IMG/VR virus record: IMGVR_UViG_3300042991_000632
Span: 91,036-148,025 of that record
Direction: 5' to 3' (one strand)
From: a virus
Lineage: Duplodnaviria > Heunggongvirae > Uroviricota > Caudoviricetes
DNA: 56,990 nt
In this document: piece after piece, positions 4,430-43,757 of the stretch
Numbering within the stretch: the first letter of the stretch is position 1
How the letters are laid out: every line of letters begins with the position of its first letter
Program-made: the position numbers and the translations under genes
Notes under the pieces: model-generated
Told to the model about the DNA's origin: nothing
The model's input: the letters and a program-made list of their open reading frames with translations, nothing else
Database searches by the model: none

Positions 4430-4438
4430 TATAAATAC
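4430..4438 (-). promoter_or_regulatory. Putative late promoter motif
   Basis: tataaatac upstream of ATG 4416. Confidence 0.65.
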
Positions 4439-34557: not shown

Positions 34558-35118
34558 TTAAATTATTTTTTGAATTTCATCACGAATAATGTCAATTAAT
34601 TTGAAATTTGATTCAACTAACGTTAATTTACCATTATTTGAATGATAAACATTAAATGTTATGTGTTCAGGAATCTGACTTTTAATTGTTTGGTATGCAA
34701 TTATATGTTCTTCCATGTCATCATAAACATTAATTTCGGTTATATCAGGAAATTGTTGAATATAATTTAAAATCTTTTGACCCTTATCTTTCCAATCATA
34801 TTTCATGTCAAGTTTATCAACATGAATGTTATTTTTATCTAAAACAGCCTGAACATATGGGCGTAACTTCTCCTGTCTGGATGTTAAAACAATAACATAA
34901 CTATCGGGTATTGACTGTTCTCTTTCTAATTGGTGTAATACAACCGGGAATGGTTTTATATCGAAAACATCCAAATCCAAACTTTCTGGTCTGCCCCACC
35001 AACCCTGATGTGGATATTGATATCCCATTTTATCCTGCCAAAACTGTTTTCCGTTTTCTTTTTCGGGAGAATTTATTAATGTACCATCAAAATCAAATGC
35101 TGCTAATCGTTTTATCAT
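34558..35118 (-). CDS. HAD-superfamily phosphatase (Swiss-army-knife RNA-repair HAD-like)
   Basis: AFDFDGTL motif I, WW, VLTSR motif II, K, YDD motif IV. ATG 35118 lies 1 nt after the upstream TAA. Confidence 0.8.
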   Translation of the reverse strand: MIKRLAAFDFDGTLINSPEKENGKQFWQDKMGYQYPHQGWWGRPESLDLDVFDIKPFPVVLHQLEREQSIPDSYVIVLTSRQEKLRPYVQAVLDKNNIHVDKLDMKYDWKDKGQKILNYIQQFPDITEINVYDDMEEHIIAYQTIKSQIPEHITFNVYHSNNGKLTLVESNFKLIDIIRDEIQKII

Positions 35119-35119
35119 A

Positions 35120-35515
35120 TTATCTAAATTCAACTTCAGTTACTTTTCCTGTTAGTTTTAATGGAAACGGTATGGGTTTCCAGTCGGTTAATTGATTTGA
35201 CATTACTGGTTTACCGCCTTCAGCAGCATTTACCGCTAATGTAATATGTGGCTTTATGTTTACTGATTCATAACCATTAACACCAACAGCAATTACCTTA
35301 TCATTAATTGCATAATCCTCAACATTCAATACAATCTCACTACCATTTATCAAATCATTTTTCGCCTGAGATTCTGGATCAAGTGCACCTGTCATTATTG
35401 TCATATGATGTGCAAATATTTTCCAGCCTTCAGGTATCATTGACTTGAAAACCTTAACTAATTTCTGATGAGACTCATCATCAAGAATAACTGCACTATA
35501 TGAAATATCTGCCAT
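35120..35515 (-). CDS. 2H phosphoesterase (2',3'-cyclic phosphodiesterase-like)
   Basis: Two HxT motifs: AHHMTI and KPHITL; ends LTGKV as in tRNA-ligase CPDase-like domains. Confidence 0.8.
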   Translation of the reverse strand: MADISYSAVILDDESHQKLVKVFKSMIPEGWKIFAHHMTIMTGALDPESQAKNDLINGSEIVLNVEDYAINDKVIAVGVNGYESVNIKPHITLAVNAAEGGKPVMSNQLTDWKPIPFPLKLTGKVTEVEFR

Positions 35516-38500
35516 TAGAGTAATTTATTGTTTTCGTTTAACATTTGTGTATCGTTCACAAAAGTAGATAATTCTTTTTTATTATTCTGTAATTTATCGG
35601 AATATATTTTTAACAATAACATTTTTTTTATCTTACCAACTTCCTCACCCTTTGGAATGCCAAGATTAATAATATCATTACCATTAATTGCTAATTCATT
35701 AACAGTTTTGGGATATTTACCCGATAATAATTCTTGTGCAGCAACATCAATTACGTGTGGTAAAATCTTACTTTGAAGTGATTCAATATATTTAACATAC
35801 ATATTATGTGCTACCGATCTTGCTTCAATCTTTGTTGTTGCTTCACTACTATCATAAGCAATTTGCAATGCCTGTATTTCTTTATAAATTTTAGTTCCTG
35901 TCGCATCTTCTGTTGCAAATCTTTTTAAGAAATATTCTGCTGGGTTTGGAAATAAACGTATTAATAAAAATATAAATTCACCAATCGTATTAACATCTTC
36001 AAATGGACTCCTATCGATTACTGATTGGTTTAATTCCGTACCAAATATTTGAGTATAAAGTCCGGTATTTTTCAATAACTGTGCTCCAATCCTTGGCTCA
36101 CCCTTCTCAACGATTTTACCAAACTCTGTTAATATTCTATCGGCAGGTTCTTTTTTTATCATTTCAGCATTGTCAATAATCATTTGCATTGTCTTTGGTT
36201 CAATTGAGAAACCAAAACGACTTGAAAATTGAACAGCACGTAACATCCTTAATGGATCATCACTAAATGCTTCAGGATTAACAGCACGGATAATTTTATT
36301 CTTTAAATCTTCCTGACCGTTATATGGATCAATAATATTCCCATCAATATCTTTTGCAATTGCATTTATTGTAAAATCTCTGCGTTCCAAATCTTTTTCA
36401 ATTGGTAATGTATGATCTGAGGTTATTTTAAAATCCTTATGTCCACCACCACCTGTTGGTTTTTCTGTTCTTGGAACTGCAATGTCTATGCTTTCAGTTG
36501 AACCATCTGGTGTAAATATTATCACACTAAATGATTGACCCTCAATGCTTGCTCTACCATATTTTGATAATATATTTTTTAGTTCTTCAATTGGTATACC
36601 AGCAATAAGTAAATCCAAATCTTTTGATTCTTTACCTAAGAAACCATCACGTACAGCACCACCAACTGAATATATCTTACCGCCACGTTCTTCAACCTCT
36701 TTTTTGAACGGTAAATCGTCCAACGACATTAGTTGTGCTTCATTTAGATTATTTTTAATTAAAACAAGATAGCCACCATCACCATCTTCAGCAATAACAT
36801 CACCATTAAAATCAAATTCCTCAATATCCGAAAAATCGGATTCGTTTGAATATCTTTTAGCATCTTCAAATGTTTTTGTAACCCAAACAATACTTTTTGC
36901 CGGGTATTTATCGAGTTCTGCTAATTTTTCATCAGTAATGTGTGCGAAATCATCAGTGTTTTCCAATTCATCTCTTTCATGTCTGACAACATCACCTGCA
37001 GTTGTTCCACGTTCATGCCAAAATCCACTATCAACACGATATGCTTTTCCAGAATACGCTTCTTCATTCAAATTCCCACTATTTGGTAATCTATACATCA
37101 ACTGCATCGTTTTAAAATCTTTATTTTTTCCTTTGTTCATTACAAATCCCAGAGAACTATACCATGCCTTTAACTTAGGTACGCTTGCTCCCCAAACATT
37201 ATCGGGGGTCAAGGTAATAATTTTATTTTGTTTATCAGCATAATCAAACAATGATTTTATTGCATCATTAGCATATCCTTTACCTCTGAATGATTTATAA
37301 ATAAAAATTTTATCTAATGTAAGATATTCTTTATTTCGATTCATAATTTCGATCTCACCAACAACCTGACCATTATCCGTTATTTTATATGAACCCCAGC
37401 CACCCTGTATATCACTACTTGGTAAATCAACGGTTGTTGTTTCGTGCACCATGCTTTTAACGCCACCCAATAATTCATCATAATCTGTGTTTTGAAACAC
37501 TTCACTATATTCTTCATTGGGTTCATCGTATGCATCCAAACCAGTCATTTCATAAAATGCTCTTAATCTTTTTTTCATATCATCAGTAATTGTTACCTTA
37601 CCTTTGTATGTACCCTGCACTGGTCTTCTATATCTAACCTCTTTTAAATGAGCGAAGTCACCAATATCCCAATGTGAAATATCCACATCCGGTTTTTCTG
37701 AGATTTCATAAATATAAAATACTTCTGGATTTTTATTGTGTTGTAGGAACATTGAATATAATCCCATCACTGCACCACCAATGCTTTTACTTGCAGCAAC
37801 CTCTGGTTTATCACTAATCCAGAATGTATCGTATTTCCACACAGGACTACCGGAATCATCAATTGCCTCATAAAAACCTTCAGGTTCAAATTCTACGGTT
37901 TCACCCATGTTCTTTTCAACAGCACGATAATATTTTTGAGTATTTGCTACTTCACCCAATACAAATTTATTGTCGTCACTAACATTTGCAACATAATCTG
38001 ACCACATATCAGAATATATATTAACTGGAATTGTTGTTTCTTTATTAAGATATGCTTGAGCAACCCTATGATAACCATCTTCAACCAAAAATTTTTGTTT
38101 TTCTATGTTATAAAACACTAAAACTGGTTCATCAGTTTGAGAGGGTTTTCCTTGTTTAATATCCTGAATAGCACCAAAGATACCACGCTTACTTACGGTT
38201 AAATCTTTTAATGGAAAATCAGGAATTGATAACATTTCATCTTTTCCAACACCACGATTTAATTTATTATAATCAATTCCTTCACTTATTTTTTTTAATT
38301 CTAAATTATTAATATCGCCTTGATTGCATGCAACACTGGTATTACCCAATCCACCCAACCTGCATTTTTTCTTAACATTAACAGATTGTGCTCCGGGCAT
38401 ATATGATAACTTTCTTTCTGTCATCATATATTCATCATCAGTTGCATCACCAACGACATGATTATATTCTAAATCTTCATCAACGGGTGGCACATTATTG

Positions 38501-40959
38501 TCTGTCAACGGTGATGTATCATTTTGATTATATGTTGGAAATCCATCCTGACCTAAATCACTATCGGTTGAAAATTTCGATGATCCATCTTCAGCAACCA
38601 TAATTTCTTTTGCACCCACCGGATTTTGAAGTGCATTACCAAAACCAACATCAAAAAATCCTAATGCACCACTTTTCTTATATCCAAGATTTTCTTTATT
38701 TACGAAATCAATACTTTCAACACCATATTGTTGCAATTCTTCAGCAATTCTTATTAATCCATAGAAAAATTCAGAATCTTGTGAATTCTTTTTTAAATAT
38801 GCATCAATTTTTCGTTTATCAACAACACCATCACGCCACCAGCCAAGATAAAATTCGATTGCGTCTGGAATTGTAATATTTAATATTTTATTAAAAGCAA
38901 AATCTAATCTCGAATATTGTTGTGCAATACTTGGATCGGTATCAAGTTTTTCAAGTACAATTACATATGTTTCCGGTATTGTGTCATCAGATTTTGATTT
39001 AACTCTATAAACACCATATGGTTGTGCAATATATTTTAATTGCTTATCAATAAGTTTTAAGTTTTCAACGGCTTCTGTTTTATCTTTTGTTACTTTTAGT
39101 ATTTTATCATCACCAATATCATAAGCAACACCAAAATTACCACCAGCAATATATTTAGGCTGTTCATATCCAAGTTTATCGGCTACTTGCTGTGCAATTT
39201 TATCGGCAATTGTTTTATCATAAACTTCAATTAGGTTAGACATATTTTCTGGTAGAAATACCGTATTGCTATCATTAAAATATGGCTCTGTTGCGCTATA
39301 ACCGCCAACATCAAAATATTTTAATACACCATCCTTATATCCAAGATTTCTCGGTTCAACAATATAATCATGTGATTTAATTTCTAAACTAATCAGATCA
39401 TTTCTGATGTTTAATAAATCCATTATATATTTATACGCAAGTTTTCGATCATCCTCAGATACCTTGGCTTCTGGGTTATTGGTTAAAATCTTTTTTGCAA
39501 TTTCTGCGATTTGTTCTGATGTGTATTTTTTCTTAACAAAATAAAAAGCAAAATCACCAAAATTTAAACCGTCTGGTTTTATTTCTTCTATGATTTTTTC
39601 AAGTCTATAAAATTCCTGTGTTGGTTTATCGATAATATTTTCTTGTAATATTCCATAGAATGATGCATTATTATTTTCAGTATCAACAATTTTATATAAA
39701 CCAAACACATCTGCAATATGCATAGGATGTCCTCTCATCACTTTGGTTGCAGAATCCGCTTCACTAACATCAGATGTTATTTTAAAAACATTCTCACTAT
39801 CTAATTCATATGCATAACCAAAGCCACCAGAACCTAAAAATTTTGGTGTGTTTGGTGATAAATTTATTTTCTTAATAGTAGCATTTGCTAATTTTAATGC
39901 ATATTCAGGATTCAAATCATTGATACGTGAAAGTCCTGATCTTGAATTTGGTTTTGTTGTTTCGTCAATTTCACGTACTTCTTTTTGTAAAAGATCACGA
40001 TTGTACCAACCTTGCTCTACAAGATATTCCTGAAGAATTAGTAAATTATCATAAAATTTCTTTTTATTTGGAACACGTTCTAATGTTTCTTTAAGATTGT
40101 TTACACATTCATGAAACATATCAACAATATATGGCATGCTTGGTAACTTTCTTGTTGGATATTTATTCCTATTTAAAATAAATGAGATGAAACCTTCATT
40201 AACAACATCATTGCCATCGCCAACACCATAAGGTATTAATCCCCACATACCATGTCTAACCTCATCGCCACTTCCAATGTCTGAAAGTATATCGTCATTA
40301 CCATCATTAAAACCATAAAGTTCATATAGTTGATATTTATTTTGTTTTCTTTGTGGACTATAATATGTATCAAACACCTCATCATTTAAACCATAATCGG
40401 TTAAAACAATTATTGGTTGACCATCACGAAGAACTTCACCATATGAACTTGGTCTGTTCATATCCCCGGCAGATTGATCATGATTTGCTATGAAATTTTG
40501 TAACTCCTGTGCAAATTCGTTATCGTTTAATTTTTCGACAACACTTTGATCTTGTCCAAATATTGCCCTACGACCTTTATTACTATCAGAAAAATTTCTG
40601 AGATACATGTATAATTCGCTTAAATTTGGTATTTCGGTTAGTTGTATGATTCTTTTTTCATTAACCTTCTTACCCTTCTCAGCAATTATCCACGTGTAAT
40701 CATCAGCAGATTCAAATATTTTTGTGACAATACTATGATTATATGAATAATACCCAATATTTATTTCGGCTTCATTTTGAGCAACACCTTTTGCATTCTT
40801 AGCAACCTTAAAAACTTTAGTGCCGTCAATGTCATACACAACCCTGCCACTACCACTACCAATTCGTGTTAGATTATCATTGGCTGCATTTATTTTTCCC
40901 GAAAAAGATTTAATTTCTTCAAAATCATCCAGAAAGACTAAAAATTCATCGTATGTCAT
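35515..40959 (-). CDS. cca: 1814-aa polyvalent protein: 3x kinase-like, ParB/Srx-like, ART-like, GNAT, ART-like, CCA-adding tRNA nucleotidyltransferase
   Basis: IGSGSGRVVY/TDYG, LGSGGFGYAY/HD..NLG/FDVG, IAGGNFGVAY/D..NLG/FDVG; VEDGYHRV; YYRA..WISD..KEVRY; LDKIFIYKSFRGKGYA; AYRV..WVT..AKRY; VGGAVRD..KDLD, DLERRDFTINAIA, FSDDPLRMLR. The symbol applies only to the C-terminal domain. Confidence 0.8.
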   Translation of the reverse strand: MTYDEFLVFLDDFEEIKSFSGKINAANDNLTRIGSGSGRVVYDIDGTKVFKVAKNAKGVAQNEAEINIGYYSYNHSIVTKIFESADDYTWIIAEKGKKVNEKRIIQLTEIPNLSELYMYLRNFSDSNKGRRAIFGQDQSVVEKLNDNEFAQELQNFIANHDQSAGDMNRPSSYGEVLRDGQPIIVLTDYGLNDEVFDTYYSPQRKQNKYQLYELYGFNDGNDDILSDIGSGDEVRHGMWGLIPYGVGDGNDVVNEGFISFILNRNKYPTRKLPSMPYIVDMFHECVNNLKETLERVPNKKKFYDNLLILQEYLVEQGWYNRDLLQKEVREIDETTKPNSRSGLSRINDLNPEYALKLANATIKKINLSPNTPKFLGSGGFGYAYELDSENVFKITSDVSEADSATKVMRGHPMHIADVFGLYKIVDTENNNASFYGILQENIIDKPTQEFYRLEKIIEEIKPDGLNFGDFAFYFVKKKYTSEQIAEIAKKILTNNPEAKVSEDDRKLAYKYIMDLLNIRNDLISLEIKSHDYIVEPRNLGYKDGVLKYFDVGGYSATEPYFNDSNTVFLPENMSNLIEVYDKTIADKIAQQVADKLGYEQPKYIAGGNFGVAYDIGDDKILKVTKDKTEAVENLKLIDKQLKYIAQPYGVYRVKSKSDDTIPETYVIVLEKLDTDPSIAQQYSRLDFAFNKILNITIPDAIEFYLGWWRDGVVDKRKIDAYLKKNSQDSEFFYGLIRIAEELQQYGVESIDFVNKENLGYKKSGALGFFDVGFGNALQNPVGAKEIMVAEDGSSKFSTDSDLGQDGFPTYNQNDTSPLTDNNVPPVDEDLEYNHVVGDATDDEYMMTERKLSYMPGAQSVNVKKKCRLGGLGNTSVACNQGDINNLELKKISEGIDYNKLNRGVGKDEMLSIPDFPLKDLTVSKRGIFGAIQDIKQGKPSQTDEPVLVFYNIEKQKFLVEDGYHRVAQAYLNKETTIPVNIYSDMWSDYVANVSDDNKFVLGEVANTQKYYRAVEKNMGETVEFEPEGFYEAIDDSGSPVWKYDTFWISDKPEVAASKSIGGAVMGLYSMFLQHNKNPEVFYIYEISEKPDVDISHWDIGDFAHLKEVRYRRPVQGTYKGKVTITDDMKKRLRAFYEMTGLDAYDEPNEEYSEVFQNTDYDELLGGVKSMVHETTTVDLPSSDIQGGWGSYKITDNGQVVGEIEIMNRNKEYLTLDKIFIYKSFRGKGYANDAIKSLFDYADKQNKIITLTPDNVWGASVPKLKAWYSSLGFVMNKGKNKDFKTMQLMYRLPNSGNLNEEAYSGKAYRVDSGFWHERGTTAGDVVRHERDELENTDDFAHITDEKLAELDKYPAKSIVWVTKTFEDAKRYSNESDFSDIEEFDFNGDVIAEDGDGGYLVLIKNNLNEAQLMSLDDLPFKKEVEERGGKIYSVGGAVRDGFLGKESKDLDLLIAGIPIEELKNILSKYGRASIEGQSFSVIIFTPDGSTESIDIAVPRTEKPTGGGGHKDFKITSDHTLPIEKDLERRDFTINAIAKDIDGNIIDPYNGQEDLKNKIIRAVNPEAFSDDPLRMLRAVQFSSRFGFSIEPKTMQMIIDNAEMIKKEPADRILTEFGKIVEKGEPRIGAQLLKNTGLYTQIFGTELNQSVIDRSPFEDVNTIGEFIFLLIRLFPNPAEYFLKRFATEDATGTKIYKEIQALQIAYDSSEATTKIEARSVAHNMYVKYIESLQSKILPHVIDVAAQELLSGKYPKTVNELAINGNDIINLGIPKGEEVGKIKKMLLLKIYSDKLQNNKKELSTFVNDTQMLNENNKLL

Positions 40960-40978
40960 GGCAAGAATATAGTATATC

Positions 40979-40987
40979 CATAAATAC
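40979..40987 (-). promoter_or_regulatory. Putative late promoter motif
   Basis: cataaatac upstream of ATG 40959. Confidence 0.6.
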
Positions 40988-40999
40988 AGAATTAACCGT

Positions 41000-41024
41000 A
41001 AAAAAAGCGCAACTATTGTTGCGC
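41000..41024 (-). terminator. Intrinsic terminator
   Basis: gcgcaac-tatt-gttgcgc hairpin with T run on the minus strand; contains the TAG of ORF 41013-41693. Confidence 0.75.
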
Positions 41025-42968: not shown

Positions 42969-43757
42969 CTACTTATCATAATTTTTAAATGCAAGTGTTA
43001 TATATTCCATAAGATGCGGAACAGTATTTAAAAATCTAATCTCTTCAACATTAAACCAACCATAATTGGTGTTTTCTTCATTTAATGTTATTTCCGTAGG
43101 TTCACCATCATATCTGCATGCAAATATGTGTTCAATGCTATCTGGGTTTTTTTGGATTGCGAATGTTTTAATAAATTTATCAATCTCCAATCCAATTTCT
43201 TCAGTAATTTCTCTTTTAACTGCTTTTTCAGGTGTTTCACCCTTTTCAATACCACCGCCAACTAACGCCCATTTGCTTGGTTGCCATATCTTCGGATCAT
43301 CCGATCTTTTTAATAATAAAAATTTATTATCGGCATTAACAATTATAGCAACAGCATTTTTTGTTAATTCTTTCTTCTCTTTTTTTTCTTCGTTTAATTC
43401 CGGTGATGCATCGTATGGTCTTGTTCCAAGATTAACATTAACGTTAGCATCTCTATTTACTTCCTGTGATCTTTCAACGGATGCTCTTTCTGAATTCAAT
43501 TTACTATCAACAAAAGATTTCATTAAATTACCACCAGCAAGTTCATACTGTGCCTTGTTACCAGTTTGCATGTTAAACGTATCAAAGAAATGTTTTAATC
43601 CCTTTAATTCCTGATAACTTAAAACACCATTTTTAACGATGAATTTTGCCCTTTTAACGCCCTCACCTGTTGGATTGGATACCAGTACCGCTTGGACATA
43701 TTTAATCACGTCTGGGGGCACGCTATACGTTTTATTGTATAATTCTGAGTTAGCCAT
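42969..43757 (-). CDS. NUDIX hydrolase with N-terminal extra domain
   Basis: GGGIEKGETPEKAVKREITEEIGL Nudix box. Confidence 0.9.
   Translation of the reverse strand: MANSELYNKTYSVPPDVIKYVQAVLVSNPTGEGVKRAKFIVKNGVLSYQELKGLKHFFDTFNMQTGNKAQYELAGGNLMKSFVDSKLNSERASVERSQEVNRDANVNVNLGTRPYDASPELNEEKKEKKELTKNAVAIIVNADNKFLLLKRSDDPKIWQPSKWALVGGGIEKGETPEKAVKREITEEIGLEIDKFIKTFAIQKNPDSIEHIFACRYDGEPTEITLNEENTNYGWFNVEEIRFLNTVPHLMEYITLAFKNYDK

Follow-up and report, generated by a model that had tools for sequence, protein, structure and literature searches.

How a phage might use one very long protein in which several unrelated enzymes are joined end to end is the question raised by an open reading frame (ORF) in a 56,990-nucleotide (nt) stretch of DNA from a virus of the Caudoviricetes (positions 91,036 to 148,025 of IMG/VR record IMGVR_UViG_3300042991_000632). 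This whole stretch, referred to here as the window, forms the final 57 kb of a 148-kb record, the completeness of which was estimated by CheckV as 45%. The ORF (window 35515-40959, minus strand) is intact, contains no internal stops and encodes a polyprotein of 1814 amino acids (P0001), as the initial annotation, made without database searches, had claimed. The same annotation described the product as eight enzyme segments with a protease-type motif at their junctions, and proposed that it is packaged late, cut by the prohead protease and injected. We found that the polyprotein consists of a conserved backbone and an exchangeable, recombination-shuffled cassette of small effector domains, and that the motif is a junction-specific feature, placed at the junctions far beyond chance.

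Conserved backbone and exchangeable cassette

A search of 5.8 billion proteins yielded 198 relatives of 1000-2900 amino acids, one of which was 76% identical to the polyprotein across its full length and had the identical module order. In IMG/VR, where an architecture search had been named beforehand as a check, at least 270 loci of the family were detected, in genomes of 320-366 kb where these were complete, and more than 100 members from independent samples had a common backbone. The N-terminal 900 residues and the C-terminal 400 residues of the query were conserved among the relatives, and the middle was poorly shared. The backbone runs from a kinase-like block through a linker with a Cys motif and then the shuffled cassette to a CCA-adding enzyme; family members have one, two or three kinase-like units at the N-terminus. 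The cassette of the present polyprotein comprises a ParB-like module, a module designated M2, a mini-GNAT and a module designated M4. Each of these four middle segments reappears at varying positions among the relatives, with 70-80% identity and sharp ends. In a library of 1.8 billion representatives, small proteins made up of one such segment alone were also found for each of the four. Relatives additionally contain NleE, ART-PolyVal and 2H/Acb1-like modules. The eight segments of the initial annotation do not constitute a single fixed architecture; the protein is one member of a family with a conserved backbone and a shuffled middle.

The description of the protein as polyvalent was appropriate: several unrelated conflict-type domains occur on one phage polypeptide, and the architectures vary among relatives. 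A 2017 paper (Iyer, Burroughs, Anand, de Souza, Aravind; PMC5512222) described polyvalent proteins with truncated kinases, GNAT, ParB-like, ART and 2H modules, co-delivered with DNA, and reported kinases without the whole C-terminal subdomain mainly from (pro)phages of Bacteroidetes and Verrucomicrobia. The present family resembles these proteins in its many conflict-type domains, its variable architectures and the stand-alone copies of its cassette modules; a GNAT and kinases lacking the C-lobe occur in the polyprotein itself, 2H in relatives, and ART-PolyVal in relatives and in a second polyprotein described below. In contrast, PMC5512222 ascribes processing to an embedded zincin-like (MPTase) peptidase, a frequent but not obligatory component, of which none was detected in the polyprotein; every joint here carries a motif of the prohead-protease type, whereas PMC5512222 does not invoke a prohead protease; and the kinase...CCA-2H(-HAD) backbone is not described there. 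The terms "CCA" and "linker" have 0 occurrences in that paper, which mentions neither a CCA-adding enzyme nor junction motifs, and our literature search found no paper on such polyproteins. In searches of cultured phages, megablast with the gene and tblastn with its N-terminal 24 amino acids gave no match, and tblastn with the conserved linker motif gave no meaningful match; among GenBank phages, relatives were found only for the CCA and GNAT parts. The polyprotein is best explained as a member of a large and previously undescribed family of polyvalent proteins of uncultured phages of ∼330 kb.

When 31-mers were sampled from window 36000-40959, fractions of 0.22-0.42 of the words were present in sediment, biofilm, freshwater-sediment and soil metagenome runs of other studies. 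The full sampled set occurred only in a cave metagenome, which is the likely source, and no RNA run was among the matches listed. The partial sharing may come from near-identical modules circulating among related phages.

Glutamate motif at the module junctions

Module borders were set without the motif, as the ends of BLAST alignments of ≥ 55% identity between family members in which both proteins continue. The sequence [LIVMF]-x-E occurred within six residues of 82% of the 1073 breakpoint clusters, compared with 32% of random positions; these counts come from related sequences and are not independent events, and the effect is still large across many module pairs. The distribution of the distances between motif and breakpoint had its peak at 0. 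Within three residues of the breakpoints, h-x-E (h, hydrophobic) was found in 66% of cases, against 20%, and none of the sequences h-x-D, h-x-K, h-x-Q and [AGS]-x-E was enriched. A logo of 797 distinct junctions, in which Glu at P1 is fixed by the selection of the junctions, had Leu (45%), Ile (29%), Val (14%) or Met (9%) at P3 and Asn (35%) at P2, and the residue at P1' was Glu, Asp, Gly or Asn.

In the polyprotein, breakpoints were located at residues 255, 324, 575, 790, 894, 1004, 1171, 1300, 1379 and 1404. The eight segment boundaries of the initial annotation are accurate to a few residues, since they match the motif-independent breakpoints at 255, 575, 790, 894, 1004, 1171, 1300 and 1404. 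All eight of the junction motifs that it listed are present, each coinciding with a breakpoint: VVNE255, LIE578, MVAE790, ISE893, LGE1003, VHE1173, LNE1299 and LNE1407. A ninth, MLNE1809, stands five residues ahead of the stop. In the AlphaFold models, the motifs are located in low-confidence linkers or in inter-domain coil. Of 55 GNAT modules with at least 40 further residues behind them, 52 carry h-x-E at the tail, compared with only 1 of the 15 that end the protein; this contrast between internal and terminal tails is weaker for the other modules. The strict grammar of Glu at P1 and an aliphatic residue at P3, together with its loss at protein ends, argues against a passive linker.

In form (hydrophobic P3, any P2, Glu at P1), the motif matches the sites of T4-type prohead proteases. 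The T4 prohead protease prefers Leu or Ile at P3. For the prohead proteases of T4, phiKZ, 201phi2-1 and SPN3US, the cleavage site is an x-X-E motif cut behind its Glu, and in T4 Alt and the internal proteins are cleaved in this way and ejected (PMC5694885, PMC7411985). Among the relatives of the present phage, Peptidase_S77 (T4 gp21 type) scored above the Pfam cut-off in five of the five complete genomes examined, the major capsid proteins of which are 83-87% identical to one another, and the presence of the protease in the source phage is extrapolated from these relatives. In one relative, the portal gene is followed by the protease (phrog_207, E 2e-37), a highly charged scaffold-like protein of 543 amino acids and the major capsid protein, and the scaffold-like protein has 32 h-x-E sites (5.9 per 100 amino acids, compared with 2.5 expected). 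No peptidase family was found in the polyprotein with Pfam or PHROGs, and no peptidase domain was detected in its neighbours.

The protease gene itself varies among the complete relatives. In three of them, the match is split into two pieces ∼1.2 kb apart within one frame of 615-651 amino acids (G001:C1:302742-304442, G002:C1:214260-215930 and G005:C1:63143-64738; L083-L088). An insertion in the protease gene, either an intein or an additional domain, is the suggested cause. The two others have a plain protease gene of ∼233-234 amino acids.

A second polyvalent protein, of 1192 amino acids, is encoded in the same genome but outside the window (G000:C1:5185-8763; L098:186-3764). It contains ART-PolyVal (36.3 bits; cut-off, 31.2) and two ParB-like modules with DGxHR, and has a duplicated C-terminal module in common with the family. 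Its module borders carry INE, IEE, INE, LTE and LNE, and the exact promoter-like motif GTATTTATA lies 27 nt before its start. Because this second polyprotein carries the same borders and motif, the junction grammar is regarded as a property of the phage group rather than of one gene.

Predicted domains and RNA-repair genes

The segments of the polyprotein described below all lie on the minus strand. The three kinase domains claimed for the N-terminal half were borne out, K2 and K3 by fold and motifs and K1 by profile and conserved residues. K1 (residues 1-203; 40351-40959) is followed by an acidic, low-confidence linker (residues 204-251; 40195-40350) that ends in the junction VVNE255, and by a small helical domain without assignment (residues 256-325; 39985-40194), which the initial annotation had not counted. 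Next come K2 (residues 345-571; 39247-39927), which lacks a C-lobe and precedes LIE578, and K3 (residues 579-786; 38602-39225), a paralogue of K2 with 28-30% identity that precedes MVAE790. An AlphaFold model of residues 1-905 had a predicted local distance difference test (pLDDT) score of 80.5 and consisted of three compact domains with low-confidence linkers between them. When this model was compared with the PDB by Foldseek, the best 50 matches were all protein kinases, aminoglycoside phosphotransferases or methylthioribose kinase. In these matches, the aligned region begins in the N-lobe and extends no further than the DFG motif (residues 1-153 of CDK2), so the domains are interpreted as kinase-like without a C-lobe; K1 was not covered by the alignments listed. 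K2 and K3 conserve G33, G36, K48, E55, D177, N183 and D196 (Gly loop, Lys, Glu, Asp, Asn and DFG-Asp). In K1, which has a GSGSGR loop, the conserved residues are G34, G36, G38, K51, E65, D166 and D188; its profile matched the Salmonella kinase SteC (E 7e-4) and, more weakly, PKC-iota in the catalytic region, and hhalign matched it to K2 and K3 across the Gly loop. K1 is predicted to be kinase-like and of a subtype different from K2 and K3.

The kinase block is joined to the cassette by a conserved linker region (residues 791-893; 38281-38589), likewise uncounted initially, which was modelled mostly with low confidence and ends in ISE893. It carries EDLEYNHVVGDAT and VxVKKKCRLGG..TSxACNQGD. In this otherwise disordered linker, EDLEYNHVVGDATxDxY and VxVKKKCRLGGxGNTSxACNQGD are short, near-invariant linear motifs (window 38290-38394, residues 856-890, and 38440-38500), and both also precede other modules in relatives. 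Neither had a match in Pfam, the PDB or cultured phages, and they could serve as a docking or targeting element.

In the cassette, the GNAT assignment was confirmed: the predicted mini-GNAT acetyltransferase (residues 1174-1299; 37063-37440), which ends in LNE1299, matched PF00583 with 22.5 bits (cut-off, 20.7) and gave a Foldseek E value of 5e-6. Its best fold match was AcrVA5, an anti-CRISPR mini-GNAT that acetylates Cas12a, but this is a likeness of fold only, with other GNATs ∼1-2 Z units away. The ParB/Srx identity of residues 894-1003 (37951-38280), a module ending in LGE1003, is moderately supported. Its DGYHR motif is invariant among members, and hhalign aligned it with ParB-type modules of relatives at probabilities of 74% (E 3e-5) and 34% (E 4e-4), the former being a module with a precomputed PF02195 match. 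It had no Pfam match of its own, either in the segment or in 21 members, and a profile search of PDB sequences gave only chance-level matches.

The ART assignment was not confirmed for either of the two segments that had been called ART-like, M2 (residues 1004-1173; 37441-37950; ending in VHE1173) and M4 (residues 1300-1407; 36739-37062; ending in LNE1407). Both have a pLDDT of ∼90 in a three-domain model of residues 1001-1404, the predicted template modelling score (pTM) of which was 0.65. Neither had a Pfam or PDB sequence match, and Pfam searches of their stand-alone homologues were also empty; when the profiles of M2, M4 and the ParB-like module were compared with PDB sequences, all matches were at chance level, one of them to a repetitive designed TIM barrel. 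By hhalign, M2 and M4 were unrelated to each other, and their probabilities were 9-12% against the ART-PolyVal module of the family and ≤ 5% against the first module of the second polyprotein. Four fold searches with the model of residues 1001-1404 (PDB, atlas and BFVD) returned lists filled by GNAT matches, which are uninformative on M2 and M4. The language-model neighbours of the two modules were mostly unnamed viral clusters, with Arr and PARP clusters at 0.86-0.89 only. By eye, both modules begin with an aromatic-Arg strand (YYR, AYR) and contain a W-x-[ST] strand, much as the ART-PolyVal module has YHG and IWFSS. We treat these strand likenesses and neighbours as a weak lead to an ART fold. 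Because neither ART assignment was confirmed, ADP-ribosylation by the polyprotein is not supported.

The C-terminal domain (residues 1408-1814; 35518-36738), with the tail MLNE1809, was confirmed by Pfam and PHROGs as a predicted class II CCA-adding tRNA nucleotidyltransferase (PF01743, 80.8 bits, cut-off 23; PF12627, 49.4 bits, cut-off 22; phrog_2244, E 2e-63); PF13735 scored 22.8 bits, under its cut-off of 27. Two small ORFs on the same strand follow (window 34558-35515), each overlapping the stop or start codon of its neighbours. The first (35120-35515, minus strand; 131 amino acids), the start of which overlaps the stop of the polyprotein gene (TAATG), encodes a putative phosphodiesterase of the 2H/tRNA-ligase-CPD-like type. 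Most family members have its counterpart as their C-terminal domain, with 58-66% identity; its best-supported profile match, at E 3e-4 but short of the cut-off, was to the fungal-tRNA-ligase type of 2H cyclic phosphodiesterase, and the equivalent domain of relatives matched 2_5_RNA_ligase2 and Acb1. The second (34558-35133, minus strand; 191 amino acids) encodes a predicted HAD phosphatase of the "SAK"/PNK3P type involved in RNA repair, and two homologues carry it as part of the polyprotein. Here, gene fission has divided the conserved tail precisely at its junction motifs and left three coupled genes, and the same h-x-E motif stands at the CCA-2H and 2H-HAD joints of fused homologues.

A CCA-adding enzyme with adjacent or fused 2H and HAD enzymes would fit tRNA 3'-end repair, which supports the repair function proposed initially. 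A 2021 survey covered the CCA-adding and healing enzymes that jumbo phages encode (Iyer et al.; PMC7824862). As in the known phage tRNA repair sets (T4 Pnk/Rnl1; CCA, 2H and HAD of jumbo phages), a class II CCA enzyme lies beside, or in one chain with, a 2H cyclic phosphodiesterase and a HAD 3'-phosphatase. The difference is that the predicted repair enzymes make up the end of a polyvalent effector protein instead of having separate genes.

Nearly all of the genes in the window lie on a single strand. Upstream of the polyprotein gene are genes for a family-B-type DNA polymerase and a NUDIX hydrolase (window 42969-43757, two genes upstream; phrog_1198, E 2e-22), together with unknown genes; downstream are the two small RNA-end-healing genes, a glycosyltransferase gene, and then baseplate and tail genes. 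With its NUDIX, CCA, 2H and HAD genes, the neighbourhood is rich in nucleotide and RNA-end chemistry.

Packaging, cleavage and alternative readings

The initial annotation gave the polyprotein gene its own terminator plus a late motif. A promoter-like GTATTTATG is indeed present 27 nt before the ATG in the upstream spacer (40960-41024, minus strand), but the hairpin at 41007-41024, which GTATTTATG follows, is the terminator of the preceding gene, and no terminator comes after the polyprotein gene, the stop of which overlaps the next start. The promoter-like GTATTTATA occurs phage-wide, and in the window many genes have it 21-44 nt upstream. The 8-mer of this type was counted 23 times, compared with 12 expected; as TATAAATA on the plus strand (equivalent to TATTTATA on the gene strand), it lies, for example, at 4430, 5106, 10310, 15696, 33195, 34547, 41716, 44638 and 53097. 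The motif upstream of the polyprotein gene is not the TATAAATA of T4. An ECF (extracytoplasmic function)-type promoter class, TGCAAT-N16-CGTA, with 21 forward-strand matches elsewhere in the genome, is distinct from GTATTTATA.

The TATTTAT[AG] class found upstream of the polyprotein gene is the class that precedes head genes, and in one relative TATTTATA stands ahead of the portal, protease, scaffold-like and other head-module genes. Among 48 homologous polyprotein genes, 46 had TATTTAT[AGT] within 70 nt upstream, compared with 3.4% of random windows. Co-regulation of the polyprotein gene with the head genes is plausible but unproven, and the term "late" is interpretation only, because the motif also precedes SbcCD-like nuclease genes. 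A further giant gene with its own TATTTATA motif lies within the head module of relative G003, on the opposite strand (L090:11041-16437, plus strand). Its 1798-amino-acid product has a C-terminal endolysin-type domain, is poor in h-x-E (0.7 per 100 amino acids) and may be another virion-delivered giant protein.

The reading that we favour, and in which our confidence is evenly balanced, is that the product is a packaged carrier polyprotein that is cut at each joint by the prohead protease, and that its enzymes are ejected with the DNA. The gene would be transcribed from the promoter class common to the head genes and the product incorporated into the prohead, where the T4 gp21-type protease would cut after the junction glutamates to give about nine separate enzymes. 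The freed enzymes would leave with the DNA; the targets of the kinases and the acetyltransferase would be host or defence proteins, while damaged tRNA 3' ends would be restored by the CCA, 2H and HAD enzymes. As for IPI-III and Alt of T4 and the ejection proteins of phiKZ and SPN3US, the protease (in relatives) belongs to the same family and the motif is x-X-E with Glu. The N-terminus, M-T-Y-[DAE]-E-F (here, MTYDEF), hardly varies among family members and resembles the T4 targeting peptide, sharing T-Y-x-E-F with MKTYQEFIAE of IPII/IPIII; this likeness may be a coincidence and is treated as a weak lead. T4 delivers the ADP-ribosyltransferase Alt with its DNA, and the present enzymes would be delivered in a similar way. 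The known substrates of T4 and the giant phages lose an N-terminal propeptide or yield scaffold fragments, and we know of no prohead-protease substrate in which some ten enzymes are strung together in order to be separated. More tentatively, and with somewhat less confidence, we propose that in a widespread group of environmental phages of ∼330 kb the capsid maturation protease serves as a universal "can-opener", so that any small effector gaining a C-terminal [LIVM]-x-E tail could recombine into the packaged carrier, between the kinases at its front and the CCA/2H/HAD tRNA-repair unit at its back, be freed in the head as an enzyme and be injected.

Several observations weigh against packaging. 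Neither Peptidase_S77 nor a major capsid gene was found in the window's own 148-kb, 45%-complete record. The sequence [LIVM]xE is common by chance, with 49 occurrences in the polyprotein compared with 33 expected. A start of the form M-(x)-T-Y-x-E-F was found on no other gene in five relatives, so that the T4-like pentapeptide is confined to the polyprotein gene in each genome, and it is modelled as part of a confident K1 helix. The family has no cultured member, and packaging and cleavage, like ejection and the targets, are inferred from sequence. The genomic setting also counts against packaging, and it favours a different account, which we consider rather unlikely: a cytoplasmic, non-packaged polyprotein, cut or partly cut at the h-x-E joints outside the capsid, that provides stoichiometric anti-defence and tRNA-repair enzymes from one transcript. 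The gene sits amid DNA polymerase, NUDIX and RNA-repair genes and outside the head module, and the same promoter motif also stands ahead of genes for an SbcCD-type nuclease, a glycosyltransferase and other non-structural proteins. In the present phage, the 2H and HAD modules are separate, translationally coupled genes, and the modules found free-standing elsewhere must work without capsid delivery. Enzymes of tRNA repair are needed throughout infection and function well as ordinary cytoplasmic proteins. Against the cytoplasmic account, the prohead protease is the sole protease found in the relatives that matches Glu at P1, T4-type enzymes (gp21) act in the prohead, and, as noted, neither the polyprotein nor its neighbours have a detectable peptidase domain. 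The precedent of the polyvalent proteins is delivery with the DNA (PMC5512222).

Less probable still is an uncleaved, tethered "Swiss-army-knife" multi-enzyme, acting, for example, on tRNA or the translation machinery, in which the h-x-E tails would be a linker or module-boundary signature that tolerates swaps. Intact multi-domain RNA-repair proteins are known (as in the family name HAD_SAK_1), polyvalent proteins of the N4 virion RNA polymerase (vRNAP) type are packaged unprocessed (PMC5512222), and the pTM of the three-domain model hints at inter-domain packing. However, a passive linker gives no reason for the fixed Glu, the rejected Asp and the L/I/V/M two residues ahead, nor for the loss of the motif where a module ends the protein; moreover, the module activities are unrelated and their order is freely permuted. 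An artefact, either an assembly chimera or read-through of several genes, is so improbable that it may be set aside: nothing beyond the unusual gene length favours it, whereas the full-length homologue and ∼200 family members, over 100 of them with the same backbone, come from other samples, base composition is uniform along the gene (window GC, ∼32%) and internal stops are absent.

Without packaging, too, so strict a grammar at the junctions would suggest that a dedicated step of processing exists. Should the joints prove to be prohead-protease sites, they would constitute a simple, testable rule by which very large phages load many different enzymes into the capsid from one gene and exchange them. 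The packaged carrier polyprotein would then be a plug-and-play delivery system for anti-defence enzymes, and the family would offer a catalogue of small, mostly unassigned, likely counter-defence modules (M2, M4, ParB-like, mini-GNAT, NleE-like, Acb1-like and ART-PolyVal). Pre-made tRNA repair enzymes would also arrive with the genome, which would be, to our knowledge, the first known case of such delivery for tRNA 3'-end repair.

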